Source of the DNA: a virus
DNA length: 23,871 bases
Virus genome (UHGV): UHGV-0138833
Strand: one strand, 5' to 3'
The position numbers were made by a program, and so were the translations under genes. This document shows positions 8,890 through 13,823 of the stretch, piece after piece (position 1 is the first letter of the stretch; each line of letters opens with the position of its first letter). The notes below the pieces were generated by a model. That model saw only the letters and a program-made list of their open reading frames with translations. It was not told where the DNA came from and searched no databases.

Positions 8890-9087
8890 CACTCAACATC
8901 AATAACGGGGAGCTGTTTCGCATAAAACGGCTCCGAAACATCCAAGAACAGTTCTAAAGATATCAGCAGCTATATGATCATTTCAAGACCAAATATTGAT
9001 TCTGCAATTTCGGGACGTTACACTGTCTCTGCACCTTATAAAGCGGGTGCCGGGGGTCGCAGCCCGGAATTGTCAACGGCGATATAT

Positions 9088-9108
9088 GACGCGCCAGCGT
9101 CTTTTTTA
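9088..9108 (+). terminator. Short intrinsic terminator candidate in the leader of the second Rha gene (tR1-like position)
   Basis: Stem GACGC / GCGTC, loop GCCA, followed by TTTTTTA. Confidence 0.35.
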
Positions 9109-9273
9109 TCGTCCGCGCTCACGCACGCCAGAATTATGGTGGGCTGGGCAGGGGAGCCGAAAGGCTCGCCGGTCTCCGTTGACGCCGGTACTGCGAACCC
9201 TGTTCAGTCTGCCACCAGTGAGTTTCGCAGCTCCGGTGGTGGAAGTTTTCCACAGTCAACGGAGGCTGCCATC

Positions 9274-9825
9274 ATGGCTACGATCCCAACCCTCACTCAA
9301 CCTGAAATTGCCATCGTTGATGGTCAGGCTGTTACTTCATCCCTGGCTGTTGCCAACTTCTTCTCCAAGCGTCATGACGATGTACTGAAAAAGATCCGCA
9401 CGCTTGAATGCTCCGCATCATTCACTGCCCGCAATTTTTCGGTGAGTGATTACACCGATTGCACAGGCCGCAAACTACCTTGCTATCAAATCACCCGTGA
9501 TGGCTTCGCGTTCCTTGCTATGGGCTTTACTGGCAAACGTGCAGCCCGGTTCAAAGAGGCATACATCAACGCCTTTAACCTGATGGAGAAGAGTTTATCA
9601 GGTGCCGATGCGTCTGATATGTCAGCTGTCGCACGAAACGCCAGAGGCGTATACCTGCATTTGCGTGAAATCCATCAAATCTGGACAAGCCAGCTTTATC
9701 CAATGCTTAAGGCCGTTGAATCTCCGCTGGCTAGCAAACTGTACGACCGTGTTGGTGATGCTGTTTTTGGCGCTGCACTTGTTGGTTCCAGGCTGAATGG
9801 TTCTGACAAGGAGGTTCGCCCATGA
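9274..9825 (+). CDS. Rha-family phage regulatory protein (about 183 aa)
   Basis: Start taken at MATIPTL (ATG 9274) with GGAGG RBS at 9261-9265. Segment FSKRHDDVLKKIRTL...ARNFSVSDY...YQITRDGFAFLAMGFTGKRAARFKEAYINAFNLME matches the Rha pattern. Confidence 0.65.
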   Translation: MATIPTLTQPEIAIVDGQAVTSSLAVANFFSKRHDDVLKKIRTLECSASFTARNFSVSDYTDCTGRKLPCYQITRDGFAFLAMGFTGKRAARFKEAYINAFNLMEKSLSGADASDMSAVARNARGVYLHLREIHQIWTSQLYPMLKAVESPLASKLYDRVGDAVFGAALVGSRLNGSDKEVRP

Positions 9826-10016
9826 TTAGTTACGAAATCATCATCTCCACTACGGAATACAGAAACGATGTATCAGTTCGCACGGATGTATCTGTCTGGC
9901 ACCGTCGCTATAAATCCAGAAAAACAGCGGAACTGAAAGCGGCAGAGATGTGTGAAACCATCTCAATGAAAGGTAGCCCGGTTAAATACGTAACTACGGT
10001 GGAGGTGCGTCCATGA
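9822..10016 (+). CDS. Hypothetical small phage protein (64 aa)
   Basis: Start overlaps the upstream stop (ATGA), indicating translational coupling. Confidence 0.5.
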   Translation: MISYEIIISTTEYRNDVSVRTDVSVWHRRYKSRKTAELKAAEMCETISMKGSPVKYVTTVEVRP

Positions 10017-10237
10017 TCCGCCACATCGTTAATTCCCTGTATCACCGATACAACCGTTGCCCCCGTGTGGGGCAGTGGTTCGCCACCAGCAACGGTCACG
10101 TTCTGCGGGTTTGCCTAGTCAACGCTGAAAGCCAGAAAGTCGTGTGCGAACTACAGGGGCGTAGCTACACCATCAGTTACCCTCTGGCGGTATTTCTGTC
10201 TGGAAAAATGTTTAAGCGTCTGGGAGGTGTGGCGTGA
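10013..10237 (+). CDS. Hypothetical small phage protein (74 aa)
   Basis: Translationally coupled to neighbours by ATGA/GTGA overlaps. Confidence 0.5.
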   Translation: MIRHIVNSLYHRYNRCPRVGQWFATSNGHVLRVCLVNAESQKVVCELQGRSYTISYPLAVFLSGKMFKRLGGVA

Positions 10238-10533
10238 ACTGTTTTCAGTTTGTGTGCGGATGTGCTTTCGATAACCCGATTCAGCGCCTAATTATGTTGC
10301 GTGTTTTGATGTCGGGTTCTTCAGACGGTGAAGGCGAGAGAGTTATTGATCATCAGGTGCTTGCTGATTTCTGCTGTTGTTCTAAGCAAGCGATATTCAG
10401 GGAAACCCTGGCACTGGAAAGAGCTGGTTATCTTCATATCCGAAAAATTGCAACGCTTACTATTGATGCAAAAGCCAGACTACAACCTGCGCGTGGCTAC
10501 ACAATTCTCATGCCGCGGAAGGAGGTTGTATGA
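10234..10533 (+). CDS. Hypothetical small phage protein (99 aa), possible winged helix
   Basis: Coupled ORF; segment AIFRETLALERAGYLHI is HTH-like. Confidence 0.45.
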   Translation: MNCFQFVCGCAFDNPIQRLIMLRVLMSGSSDGEGERVIDHQVLADFCCCSKQAIFRETLALERAGYLHIRKIATLTIDAKARLQPARGYTILMPRKEVV

Positions 10534-11516
10534 GCCGTTACGCCCCCACACCGGAAGTTATGGCTATTGGTCAAATTAATATTTCCGGCAATGTTACACC
10601 TGCGAACTGGTGGAAATATATTCGACTACCCAGTGGGCGTCCGGATGCGACGGCTATCGCTCTGCTTTCAGAGATCGTTTACTGGTACCGCCCGACAGAG
10701 ATCAGGGATGAGCACACCGGAGCGTTGCTGGGATATCGCAAGCGTTTTCAGGGCGACAAACTGCAAAGAAGCTACCAGGCGTTTGCTGAGCAGTTTGGTT
10801 TCGGGAAAAGGGAAACCGCAGATGCGCTGAAGCGTCTGCGCGATGCAGGGTTTATTACTCTGGATTTACGCACGGTGGAAATGCTCGATGGGGTGAAATG
10901 CAGCAATATTTTGTTTGTCGGGATCAACCCACAGGCAATTGCGGCCATCACCACACCTTCTTCTGTTTCGCCAGAAAGTAACAGCAATAATGCAATCAGC
11001 GATACAGCTATTACGTTAAAACGGAACACCCCCCGACGTCATAACGGAACAGGGGATACGCCGAATGTTGATACAAATACAGAGATTACTACAGAGATTA
11101 CAACGGAGACTAAAAACACTATTGATGCATCCGCTGACGCGTCTGCGCGTTCTGCCCGACAGGAATATTCACCGGAATTTGAACAGGCCTGGCAGGAATA
11201 TCCCAAACGTGCTGGTGGCAATTCCAAGTCAGCGGCCTTCAAAGCCTGGAAAGCCCGTATCAGGGAGGGAATAAAACCGGAGACCATGCTTGATGGCGTG
11301 AAGCGGTATGCCGCCTGGGTACGTGCTACAGGAAATACCGGCACACAGTTCGTGAAGCAGGCTGCGACGTTCTTTGGACCCGATCGTCACTTCGAAGATT
11401 ACTGGCAACAGCCAGCCGCTCACGGAGGTGGGCGACAGCGACAGGTCGATGTCCTGGCTGGCCTGGGAGCCATGTCTGACAAATTCGGTAAATCCAGTAA
11501 CAAATTGACATTCTGA
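10530..11516 (+). CDS. Putative replication initiation protein (O-like position, 328 aa)
   Basis: AGGAGG RBS. Sits directly upstream of the DnaC-like and DnaB-like genes. Central low-complexity linker TEITTEITTETK encoded by 12-bp tandem repeats. Confidence 0.5.
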   Translation: MSRYAPTPEVMAIGQINISGNVTPANWWKYIRLPSGRPDATAIALLSEIVYWYRPTEIRDEHTGALLGYRKRFQGDKLQRSYQAFAEQFGFGKRETADALKRLRDAGFITLDLRTVEMLDGVKCSNILFVGINPQAIAAITTPSSVSPESNSNNAISDTAITLKRNTPRRHNGTGDTPNVDTNTEITTEITTETKNTIDASADASARSARQEYSPEFEQAWQEYPKRAGGNSKSAAFKAWKARIREGIKPETMLDGVKRYAAWVRATGNTGTQFVKQAATFFGPDRHFEDYWQQPAAHGGGRQRQVDVLAGLGAMSDKFGKSSNKLTF

Positions 11517-11526
11517 GGTGACAGCG

Positions 11527-12426
11527 ATGATGACGATTGACCAACGTGAGAAACAAACAAGACTACAGGCGCGAATGGATGAGTTACGGGCAGAAATGGA
11601 TGAGTTACGGGCAGAGATTGCATTTGCTCAGAAGGGCGAAAAGCCATGGCCTTATCGTTCCTGCCTGATGCGTGAAGGTCGCGGATATTGCGAAAAACAC
11701 GGTAAATATCGTACGCATATACTGGTGTGGATCGATCGTAATGGCGAGGACAGAGAAAAAATTTCATGCTGCCCTGACTGCTTGATCGCTGAGGCCAGTG
11801 ATTTGACCATGGAACTGTCGTCCCTCAAGGCGGAAGAACTGACTGATAACGCCGGAATTGCTCTGCGTTTTCGGGACTGCGAGTTTGATAATTATCTGGA
11901 GGTTAATCCTGACGCAGCCAGAAATCTTGCGGCCTGTCGCCGCTATGCGGAGAACTGGCCAGATATGCTGGAGAACGGTACCAGTCTTGTTATGACCGGC
12001 AGTTGCGGTACCGGGAAAAATCATCTGGCGGTATCAATGGCAAAACACATCATCCGTAACTATCTGGCCAGTGTGGAGATCACCGACGTGATGCGCCTTA
12101 CCCGGGCTGTGAAAAACTGCTGGCGGAATGACAGTGAAAAAACAGCGGATGACGTCATTGAGCATTATGCGTCACTGGATTTGCTGATTGTCGACGAAGT
12201 CGGCGTTCAGTTTGGCAGTGCGGCTGAAATGGCCATTTTGCAGGAAATTATCAATGCCCGGTATGAGGGTATTTTGCCAACTATCTTGATCAGCAATCTT
12301 TCACCGGAAGAATTGTGGGCGTTCATCAGTCCCCGGATTGCCGACAGGATCACCGATGGCGGGCGCAACTGGTTGTCGTTTAACTGGCCCAGCTACCGTT
12401 CTCGTATCGGAGGTGTTGCCGCATGA
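11527..12426 (+). CDS. DnaC-like helicase loader / IstB-type AAA+ ATPase (about 299 aa)
   Basis: Walker A GSCGTGKNHLA and Walker B LLIVDEVG. Start ATG 11527 after GAGGTGA. Contains a perfect 21-bp tandem duplication (RAEMDELRAEMDEL). Confidence 0.75.
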   Translation: MMTIDQREKQTRLQARMDELRAEMDELRAEIAFAQKGEKPWPYRSCLMREGRGYCEKHGKYRTHILVWIDRNGEDREKISCCPDCLIAEASDLTMELSSLKAEELTDNAGIALRFRDCEFDNYLEVNPDAARNLAACRRYAENWPDMLENGTSLVMTGSCGTGKNHLAVSMAKHIIRNYLASVEITDVMRLTRAVKNCWRNDSEKTADDVIEHYASLDLLIVDEVGVQFGSAAEMAILQEIINARYEGILPTILISNLSPEELWAFISPRIADRITDGGRNWLSFNWPSYRSRIGGVAA

Positions 12427-13823
12427 CCAGCCAGAACACCCCGGCATGGCGTAACGATGACCTGGAAGGCGCTGTCATCGGTGCGTTTTTTCTGCGTGGG
12501 GCCGATCCGGAAGTGATGGATATTCTGGCCACACTTCCGGCGGATGTATTTTTTGTGCGTCAGTACCGGGATATTTACGCGGGGATTTGCAGACAGGCTC
12601 GCATATCCGGCGTCATTGACCCCGTACTGCTGTGCAATGAGATGCCGGAACTTGCCCCGGTGATTACCGACACCGGACGCAAAACCTGGGTGAAGTCTTC
12701 ACTGGAGCACTATGTCGCAGCGTTGCGGCGCAATGCCGCACTGCGCGATGCAGAAAAAACACTGACTGAAGCATTACAGAATTTACGTGATGCGTATACC
12801 TGTGAAGCAGCCGAGGATGCCCTGAAGGATGTGCAGAACATGATGGCCTCACTGTCGACCGGAAAGGGCGTCATTCAGCCGGTTCACATTGATGATGTCC
12901 TTCCGGAAGTGGTCGACCGTGTTGAATGCCGCAATCAGGGACTGGAGAAATCCAGGGCGCTGATGACCGGTATTGATGAACTGGACGCAAAAACGGGCGG
13001 TATGGAGCCCGGAGACCTGGTATTCATTGCCGCCCGTCCTTCGATGGGGAAAACCGAACTTGCGCTGGACATCATCGACAAGGTGACTGAGCAGGGGCAT
13101 GGCGTGCTTCTGTTCACCATGGAGATGGCGAACATCCAGATTGGTGAACGTATGGTGTCTGCTGCCGGTGGAATGCCGGTATCCCGTCTTAAGTCTGTTG
13201 CCCGTTTTGAAGATGAAGACTGGGCGCGTTTCTCGCAGGGCGTGGGACGAATGACGGGGCGTAATATCTGGATGGTGGACCAGGCAAACCTGACCATTGA
13301 TGAGATATGTGCAACCACGAAGCACCACCGGATGAAACACCCGGAAACGGCGCTGGTGGTGGTCGATTACCTCGGCCTGATTAAAACCCGCAGCACGGGG
13401 CGTCACGACCTTGCGGTGGGGGAAATCTCAAAGGGACTTAAAAGCCTGGCAAAATCCGGCGGTTTTCCGCTGATTGCTCTGAGCCAGCTCTCCCGCGGCG
13501 TGGAATCCAGACCCAATAAACGCCCAATGAACTCGGACCTGAAAAACTCCGGGGAAATCGAGGCGGATGCCGACATCATTCTGATGCTTTACAGGGATGA
13601 GGTATACAACCCGGAAACTCAGGCCAGAGGCATAGCAGAAATCAACATCACGAAACAGCGTAATGGCACGCTCGGGACCATTTACCGGCGTTTTCATAAC
13701 GGACATTTTCTGCCTGTGGACCAGGAGAGTGCCCGGGTTCTTTCCACACCCATGACGCCGGGCAATCCGCGCAGATACAGCAATAACCGCATGTCGGGCA
13801 GTAAAACGGAGCGTTTATTTTGA
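12423..13823 (+). CDS. DnaB-family replicative helicase (466 aa)
   Basis: Walker A ARPSMGKTELALDI, Walker B LVVVDYLGLI, ALSQLSR motif. Start overlaps the loader stop (ATGA). Confidence 0.8.
   Translation: MTSQNTPAWRNDDLEGAVIGAFFLRGADPEVMDILATLPADVFFVRQYRDIYAGICRQARISGVIDPVLLCNEMPELAPVITDTGRKTWVKSSLEHYVAALRRNAALRDAEKTLTEALQNLRDAYTCEAAEDALKDVQNMMASLSTGKGVIQPVHIDDVLPEVVDRVECRNQGLEKSRALMTGIDELDAKTGGMEPGDLVFIAARPSMGKTELALDIIDKVTEQGHGVLLFTMEMANIQIGERMVSAAGGMPVSRLKSVARFEDEDWARFSQGVGRMTGRNIWMVDQANLTIDEICATTKHHRMKHPETALVVVDYLGLIKTRSTGRHDLAVGEISKGLKSLAKSGGFPLIALSQLSRGVESRPNKRPMNSDLKNSGEIEADADIILMLYRDEVYNPETQARGIAEINITKQRNGTLGTIYRRFHNGHFLPVDQESARVLSTPMTPGNPRRYSNNRMSGSKTERLF

Follow-up and report, generated by a model that had tools for sequence, protein, structure and literature searches.

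Tandem 12-bp repeats within the replication initiator gene of an Escherichia coli prophage carry a DNA-level signal that goes beyond the protein linker they encode, and they very likely belong to a cis-acting origin element. The prophage was studied as a window of 23,871 nucleotides (UHGV virus genome UHGV-0138833), the whole stretch of DNA analysed here, which is 100% identical to NZ_CP027134 and occurs in several hundred complete E. coli genomes. The model that we favour, with somewhat better than even confidence, is that of an origin with two parts, both within the initiator gene: lineage-specific initiator sites, followed by a 12-mer module for opening or loading. A first-pass annotation of this DNA had described the repeats as candidate origin iterons, placed as in phage lambda inside the gene of a putative initiator. 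The initiator is borne out by a match to the phrog_270 profile "replication initiation protein" (E=5.6e-75) and by the genes for a DnaC/IstB-like ATPase and a DnaB-like helicase that follow, and the placement is indeed lambda-like, the block lying in the linker-coding part of the gene as do the origins of phages lambda, SPP1 and TP901-1. The proposed cis-acting DNA element in that part of the gene is likewise supported, whereas "iterons", in the sense of sites that determine specificity, is probably the wrong label for the 12-mers.

The array consists of the units ACAGAGATTACT (11079-11090), ACAGAGATTACA (11091-11102) and ACGGAGACTAAA (11103-11114), the third of which has diverged (3/12 mismatches). 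The repeats are evident on direct reading and were also found by Tandem Repeats Finder (11078-11109, period 12, 2.7 copies, 90% match, score 50), as the second-highest-scoring tandem array of the window; the span of 11078-11113 originally given for them was one base too low. They are in frame in the open reading frame (ORF) at 10530-11516 and encode TEITTEITTETK, that is TEIT-TEIT-TETK, at amino acids (aa) 184-195 in a linker predicted to be disordered. No further exact copy of the 12-mer was found elsewhere in the 23.9-kb window. An array of 2.7 copies is by itself modestly above chance, and its significance comes from the recurrence of the repeats in hundreds of related loci. Copy number is polymorphic within the species: E. 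coli and Shigella alleles that are 98-99% identical (P0002-P0007, P0017) have two units (TEIT-TETK), not three.

Repeats of the form ACAGAGAWTACT recur across bacterial phyla, in phage and plasmid genes for replication initiators. The exact double 12-mer was found in at least 120 viral contigs, with several types of N-terminal domain and at least eight types of C-terminal domain among the carriers, and in 117 of 120 it is in frame at aa 140-210 of an initiator-sized ORF. A 45-nt probe matched at least 115 cultured phage genomes, with almost all matches under genes annotated as replication initiators; the cultured carriers are phages of Acinetobacter, Bacillus, Klebsiella, Staphylococcus, E. 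coli, Erwinia, Vibrio, Synechococcus and Burkholderia. Relatives of the window-type N-terminal domain, at 35-60% identity, occur in Serratia, Yersinia, Xenorhabdus, Acinetobacter, Bacillus, Lachnospiraceae, Thermoanaerobacterales, cyanobacteria, Chloroflexota and other groups. Their C-terminal domains are of many kinds, DnaB_2, DUF6017 and Phg_2220_C among them, and almost all of these relatives contain the peptide T[NY]TE[IN]TTE[IN]T, encoded about 500-670 nt into the gene. The same ACAGAGAWTAC array stands behind N-terminal domains of the window, P0071, L001, P0083 and further types. Comparison of N-domain types by hhalign gave probabilities of 53% and 9%, and because homology is not established the types are treated here as separate families that share a Q..YW helix and a winged-helix layout. 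The P0071-type domain is also found, about 50% identical to the E. coli version, in Staphylococcus aureus phage 96 (L204) and in ORF292 of Lactobacillus phage mv4 (L205), where phage 96 has one or two degenerate CAGAGAMTA units and mv4 has four, including one out of frame. A run of ACAGAGATTACA/ATAGAGATTACA at about 9000-9200 of a giant-virus metagenome contig (L096) was set aside as coincidental low complexity; it has no initiator context, and its repeats, translated as (NRDY)n in a different frame, belong to a low-complexity ORF of 470 aa.

The comparison of DNA-level with protein-level conservation that the first-pass annotation had proposed has now been made, and it finds the nucleotides kept at silent positions, in other reading frames and in non-coding DNA. 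Codon choice was examined in 56 loci from several phyla with <80% N-domain DNA identity to each other, which together contain 77 in-frame units with the profile A C A(71/77) G A G(67/77) A W T(72/77) A C W. Within the units glutamate is encoded by GAG in 52/57 cases, as against 581/1453 (40%) elsewhere in the same genes (p=2e-15), lysine by AAG in 15/16 (p=1e-6) and isoleucine by ATT in 39/46 (p=8e-9), while the threonine at position 1 is ACA in 71/77 and that at position 4 is ACT in 37 and ACA in 23 (p=1e-13), all of these p-values being nominal and inflated by shared ancestry among loci that were partly ascertained via the motif or homology. Codon bias does not account for a codon that, for one and the same amino acid, depends on the position in the unit. 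As a control in the same loci, the codons of the invariant IVYWYRP motif vary freely (Tyr 29/27; Pro 12/18/19/7), which shows that silent sites are otherwise saturated, despite the inflation of the p-values. Furthermore, at least 14 loci have an extra out-of-frame copy of the unit, giving an unrelated RDY peptide; conservation of the motif is independent of reading frame. Among seven enterobacterial homologues, codon identity at shared residues is 0.3-0.5 in the N-terminal domain and 0.7-1.0 over 10992-11135, with a peak of 0.94 at 11079-11102, the first two units. On the model favoured here, the peptide TEITTEIT would be mainly a side effect of the translation of this conserved DNA.

Upstream of the array lies a second set of repeats. 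A recurring AACGGAACA motif had already been remarked on near the 12-mers, and exact copies are present at 11020-11028 and 11043-11051, 23 bp apart and in different reading frames (K-R-N and N-G-T). Both belong to the dyad-like ACG-N6-CGG units at 11013, 11036 and 11058, and it is to these units that the 22-23 bp spacing belongs; the 12-mers are contiguous and have no dyad symmetry. From the dyads through the 12-mers, the spacings across the window element are 23, 22, 21, 12 and 12 bp. The pairing of 12-mers with lineage-specific dyads is constant: each lineage has two to five upstream copies of its own X4-N6-X4' dyad, the last of which is followed by a GAGACAAAT junction and then by the 12-mers. 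A perfect dyad, TACGTTGAAACGTA, is repeated in the Yersinia, Serratia and Xenorhabdus homologues, and other lineages have TACAAAATTTTGTA, CACAAAAAAATGTG, CCCGAAAAAACGGG, GGCGCCACAGCGCC or GCCGAATTGGGC. The dyads change together with the recognition-helix region, a correspondence that was examined by eye alone and is suggestive. A position weight matrix from 37 diverse loci gives the junction as gaGACaaAT, with the final AT nearly invariant.

The same layout can be found outside intact initiator genes. In the 8.4-kb Bacillus plasmid pBSG3 (L213, NC_014104.1), three CCTACAGGGAAA units 22-23 bp apart, a GACAATT junction and three copies of ACAGAGATTACT occupy about 740-845, with stops upstream in all frames and no initiator-like ORF. 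This is a small rolling-circle-type plasmid, with near-identical relatives in B. velezensis, and the orphan element, which is non-coding, precedes the plasmid's own rep gene. It may give the plasmid access to a phage initiator acting in trans, or it may serve as a decoy. Dyads and 12-mers without an intact initiator ORF are also present in two viral contigs, L119 (1-130; four copies of the dyad GTCAGAATTGAC, and a stop codon directly before the first 12-mer) and L118 (about 11000-11230; four copies of CGACAAAATGACGG).

The 12-mer block is also a region of low duplex stability. Within the 3-kb replication module (9500-12500), no 40-bp duplex is less stable than 11063-11103, whose free energy (dG) is -45.8 kcal/mol against a gene mean of -57.6 (standard deviation 4.0), about three standard deviations off. 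The block is among the least stable 5% of its own gene in 32/40 diverse loci, a result that follows in part from the motif's own composition.

Mosaic relatives of the prophage, which include Shiga toxin (Stx)-converting phages and other E. coli prophages, combine this C-terminal domain and loader type with different N-terminal domains. Where the 12-mers are present (the Stx-phage "O" type, P0071 and P0083), the repeats upstream of them are different, and where they are absent (PhiR49_2 and phiP27), the relatives have repeat sets of their own at the same place. The joints were located by megablast with a query beginning at 10200, which gave query starts of 880, 919 and 921. Initiators without the TEIT peptide (L002 1462-1500, PhiR49_2; L003 1455-1500, phiP27; P0081, P0101, P0115) have a tandem repeat of their own before the shared C-terminal domain, either GAACCAGTCAAW in two or three copies (EPVK/EPVN) or AAACATGATCCGCAAG in two (KHDPQ), and its copy number varies between alleles, as does that of the upstream repeats (e.g. 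PSKSE in one to four copies).

Our preferred model can be laid out as follows. The three ACG-N6-CGG dyads, spanning 11012-11070, would be the double-strand sites, and hence the true iterons, for the N-terminal winged-helix domain; we regard them as iterons proper because they are lineage-specific and dyad-symmetric and their two-turn spacing fits winged-helix dimers. Beyond the GA.ACAAAT junction would come the unwinding module, the 12-mers, which are nearly identical across phyla whatever the N- or C-terminal domain; this role is assigned to them because they are contiguous, asymmetric, low in stability and independent of the N-terminal domain, and stand at the position of the AT-rich element of SPP1. 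Initiators bound at the dyads would distort the DNA and open the adjacent, least stable 12-mer array. A conserved surface of the initiator is the likeliest partner for one melted 12-mer strand, in the manner of TrfA, RepE and DnaA at their 13-mers or trios, and the strict conservation of the 12-mer sequence argues for a sequence-specific contact of some such kind. The C-terminal domain would then deliver the DnaC-like loader and the DnaB-like helicase to the opened strands.

Several points weigh against a two-part origin of this kind, beyond the inflation of the codon statistics mentioned above. A thermodynamic unwinding element needs no fixed sequence, and to name the molecule that reads the 12-mers is a guess. 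At about 64% A+T the block is far milder in composition than the classical examples of such elements, and where the host is low in GC it does not invariably coincide with the stability minimum. The window dyads are degenerate relative to those of Yersinia and Serratia. Moderate synonymous conservation runs on to about 11190, past the putative origin, and this may reflect recent recombination of the C-terminal module, not origin function. Finally, no motif carrier with an experimentally mapped origin or protein-DNA contact was found.

The closest competitor to this model would make the 12-mers themselves the iterons, bound as duplex by the N-terminal domain, with the upstream dyads in an auxiliary or regulatory role. 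They are, after all, tandem direct repeats inside an initiator gene, under DNA-level constraint, always on the coding strand and in the same place after the N-terminal domain, and the unusual conservation of the window-type domain across phyla (45-60% identity) fits a conserved target. We nevertheless think it unlikely, because the same 12-mer follows N-terminal domains whose relationship to the window type is weak or undetectable by profile comparison, and because contiguous 12-bp units lacking dyad symmetry do not resemble the sites of winged-helix dimers. Classical iterons change with the DNA-binding domain and are units of 17-22 bp at two-turn spacing, and neither is true of the 12-mers; it is the dyads directly upstream, spaced by about 22 bp in every lineage, that change with the recognition-helix region. 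The number of 12-mers falls to two in the nearly identical E. coli alleles P0002-P0007, and in SPP1 it is the repeats upstream that are bound, the AT-rich part lying downstream of them. A second competitor takes its cue from the mosaic joints, since similarity begins exactly at 11079 or at 11118-11120 and the block stands between many combinations of N- and C-terminal domains: the 12-mers would be kept as a boundary for swapping initiator modules and not as a replication signal. Second-order selection, however, cannot plausibly fix 24-36 bp among Firmicutes, Proteobacteria and cyanobacteria, nor would it account for an orphan element with iterons in non-coding plasmid DNA, and we accord this explanation a small probability. 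Recombination at the block is real, but it is better seen as a consequence than as a cause of its conservation, because a conserved functional site is what the block appears to be.

Two further explanations place the constraint in a gene product, and both are highly improbable. The motif keeps strictly to one strand and is rarely found outside a transcribed gene, as would be expected if it acted in the messenger RNA, for instance as a translational pause, a regulator site or an RNase site controlling initiator synthesis. An oriented origin predicts strand specificity equally well, however, and a non-coding copy stands beside iteron-like repeats in a plasmid; a search of Rfam with the block returned no family at E<=1, and the predicted RNA fold, in which the 12-mers are unpaired, has no structure in excess of shuffled controls (z=0.02). 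The least probable of all is that the T-E-I-T linker peptide is conserved as protein, with no function of the DNA, for example as a flexible or phosphorylatable tether or a partner-binding motif. The peptide does occur in nearly all homologues, and 117/120 viral matches are in the same frame. The codon data largely refute such an explanation, however, since silent positions are fixed here and not at invariant residues elsewhere, and it is further opposed by the copies in other frames (RDY peptide), by the non-coding copies and by the predicted disorder of the segment.

A broader proposal, more tentative than the two-part origin itself, is that the ACAGAGAWTACW repeats and the GAGACAAAT junction form an origin "box", near-universal and so far unrecognised, in a very large and varied group of initiators from phages, plasmids and integrative elements. 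Taken as a whole, this proposal is possible, if somewhat short of probable, in all three of its parts: that there is such a box, that its scope is the winged-helix initiators with a Q..YW helix in Proteobacteria, Firmicutes, cyanobacteria, Chloroflexota and other groups, and that it is read in a sequence-specific way at opening or loading, for instance as single-stranded DNA by an initiator surface that is conserved, or by a host replication protein of universal occurrence such as primase or helicase. A full-text search of the open-access literature for the motif, as DNA and as peptide strings, found no description of it, subscription literature being outside the search, and the same kind of search for DUF6017 or pBSG3 yielded nothing relevant.

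Table 1. Features of the initiator gene, its candidate origin and the adjoining replication genes (positions in the window)
Feature	Position	Strand	Remarks
Replication initiator gene, 328 aa	10530..11516	+	ORF; N-terminal winged-helix domain, disordered linker, C-terminal helical domain
N-terminal winged-helix domain, aa 1-144	10530..10961	+	Signature IVYWYRP...D.LQRSY
Zone of suppressed synonymous divergence, candidate origin (dyads, 12-mers and short flank)	10992..11135	.	Codon-level comparison, 7 enterobacterial homologues
Dyad-like unit 1, TACGTTAAAACGGA, contains start of AACGGAACA; candidate initiator-binding site (iteron)	11012..11025	.	Resembles TACGTTGAAACGTA
Dyad-like unit 2, GACGTCATAACGGA	11035..11048	.	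23 bp after unit 1, different reading frame
Dyad-like unit 3, TACGCCGAATGTTG, degenerate	11057..11070	.	22 bp after unit 2; counterpart in L007, GATACGCCGAAAAGTGAGACG
Junction GATACAAAT, last dyad to first 12-mer	11070..11078	+	Family consensus GAGAC(A/G)(A/T)AT
Three tandem 12-mers, ACAGAGATTACT/ACAGAGATTACA/ACGGAGACTAAA	11079..11114	+	Family consensus ACAGAGAWTACW; candidate unwinding/loading element
Mosaic joints to initiators with other N-terminal domains	11079..11120	.	Similarity starts at 11079 (Stx phages) or 11118-11120 (phiP27, PhiR49_2)
C-terminal helical domain, aa 211-296	11160..11417	+	Common, by recombination, to other initiator types preceding the same loader type
DnaC/IstB-like helicase loader gene	11518..12426	+	PF01695, E=4e-14; phrog_50, E=1.4e-87; NF005931 DnaC below its cut-off
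DnaB-like replicative helicase gene	12423..13823	+	PF03796 DnaB_C, E=7.7e-74

The initiator itself (Table 1) has no Pfam or NCBIfam family (Pfam threshold E<=0.01). An AlphaFold2 model, for which the input was an alignment of 32 enterobacterial homologues, is confident at aa 1-144 and aa 211-296, and the linker between them (aa 145-210) has a predicted local distance difference test score (pLDDT) of about 30. The C-terminal part is matched by phrog_1701 ("DnaD-like helicase loader") and phrog_26426, and its domain presumably has a role in recruiting the loader. Searches of Pfam, NCBIfam and PDB sequences with the N-terminal domain gave weak generic helix-turn-helix matches and nothing more, and Foldseek against PDB found generic winged-helix folds alone (E>=0.016), with DnaD-N at rank 42. 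Membership of two known families was considered and rejected: Phage_rep_O (PF04492) is not listed for the N-terminal domain even at E<=10, and the protein has no more than weak matches to "O-like" PHROG profiles (phrog_391, E=8e-7), and RepA_N (PF06970), the family of plasmid initiators with a central origin in rep, is not listed for any of eight family members at E<=10. For the N-terminal family of SPP1-type replisome organizers (TIGR01714/PF09681) the indications diverge: hmmscan gave no match for the window domain or for its Bacillus relative, while the GenBank annotator of 0105phi7-2 notes an HHpred match of that relative to TIGR01714. Present in many phyla and lacking a curated Pfam, NCBIfam or PDB match, the domain is a candidate for a new curated family; its invariant residues, in the window and in loci L004-L083, are G20, W27, IVYWYRP, F73, D76, L78, Q79, R114 and N126.

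Two features of the neighbouring DNA deserve brief description. Directly upstream of the initiator gene, and overlapping its start in ATGA, is a 99-aa ORF (10234-10533, + strand), which matches residues 3-93 alone of the 223-position "replication initiation protein" profile phrog_4617 (E=2e-29) and looks like the DNA-binding head of another initiator; some E. coli genomes are without it (matches H39 and H40). An exact 12-nt repeat, ACTATTGATGCA, is found near the 3' end of this ORF (10459-10470) and again after the 12-mer block, at the second joint (11118-11129). This arrangement suggests that the present N-terminal domain and origin (about 659 bp) were inserted into an older initiator gene or replaced its middle. 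The highest-scoring tandem array of the window (Tandem Repeats Finder score 84) lies near the start of the loader gene, where a 21-bp perfect duplication, two copies of AATGGATGAGTTACGGGCAGA at 11574-11615 (+ strand), encodes MDELRAE twice; it is probably the product of recent slippage.

The wider interest of the 12-mers lies in their constancy. A motif of 24-48 bp is >90% identical among phages of E. coli, Klebsiella, Acinetobacter, Bacillus, Staphylococcus, Vibrio and Synechococcus, in the midst of genes that have diverged to 35-60% protein identity, and this contrast suggests that origin opening or helicase loading includes a conserved, sequence-specific step, which seemingly has no name. 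With the motif as a simple marker, it should be possible to predict replication origins in prophages, phages and phage-like plasmids. The motif also marks the exchange point of initiator modules, and it explains a conserved "TEITTEIT" in a disordered linker as a by-product of translation. If the proposal of a near-universal origin box is correct, one short motif would mark the replication start of thousands of mobile elements.

Comparison with well-studied origins brings out both the familiar and the unfamiliar parts of this arrangement. The lambda origin lies in the linker-coding middle of gene O, where initiator sites, four 19-bp dyad iterons, are followed by an A+T-rich segment, and the O protein is modular, with an N-terminal domain that binds DNA and a C-terminal domain that recruits the loader. 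The candidate origin of the window similarly has its repeats in a linker-coding segment (aa 161-195, pLDDT about 30), and, as in lambdoid phages, there is a mosaic joint at the linker. In place of the lambda iterons it has three dyad-like units, degenerate, 14 bp long and spaced by 22-23 bp, and the A+T-rich segment that follows these is the least stable of the module. It differs further in a 12-mer array, which lacks dyad symmetry and has no fixed-sequence counterpart in lambda.

A further parallel in layout is oriL of SPP1, which lies inside gene 38 and consists of direct repeats bound by gp38 followed by an AT-rich unwinding element, and which works in vitro (PMC6316719). The SPP1 sequence displays this order, with the bound repeats upstream and the AT-rich part downstream. 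As with the candidate origin of the window, the SPP1 origin falls between the parts of the initiator gene for an N-terminal DNA-binding and a C-terminal domain, repeats are followed by short AT-rich tandem units inside the organizer gene, and the genes for a helicase loader and a DnaB-type helicase come next. The sequences are unrelated, however, the SPP1 repeats being AAACGACAC... and its AT-rich tandem AACAATGATAAC, unlike ACAGAGAWTACW, and the C-terminal domain of the SPP1 initiator is Phg_2220_C, which the window initiator lacks. The rep gene of TP901-1 (ORF13), annotated as "replication protein, experimental", resembles the window gene in encoding a DnaD-like initiator, with direct repeats TTTTCCAGATGTGG and then an A+T-rich stretch coding for N/T/E/K before the C-terminal domain; it differs in its N-terminal domain and in having no ACAGAGAWTAC unit. 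Indeed, the SPP1 and TP901-1 origins were both checked for the 12-mer motif, and it is absent from each.

For the 12-mers themselves, the best analogy may be with the 13-mers of oriC and of the RK2 oriV, which are likewise contiguous, A+T-rich tandem repeats of 12-13 bp beside initiator sites, at a local stability minimum. Plasmid Rep proteins and DnaA bind one strand of such unwinding-element 13-mers sequence-specifically (PMC4081077; PMC10602881). The putative opening element of the window differs from these in sequence and in lying in coding DNA, and the window initiator is neither DnaA nor a WH1/WH2 Rep protein. Intragenic origins are thus familiar from lambda, SPP1 and TP901-1, each with repeat sequences of its own, and what is new here is a near-universal 12-mer of fixed sequence.

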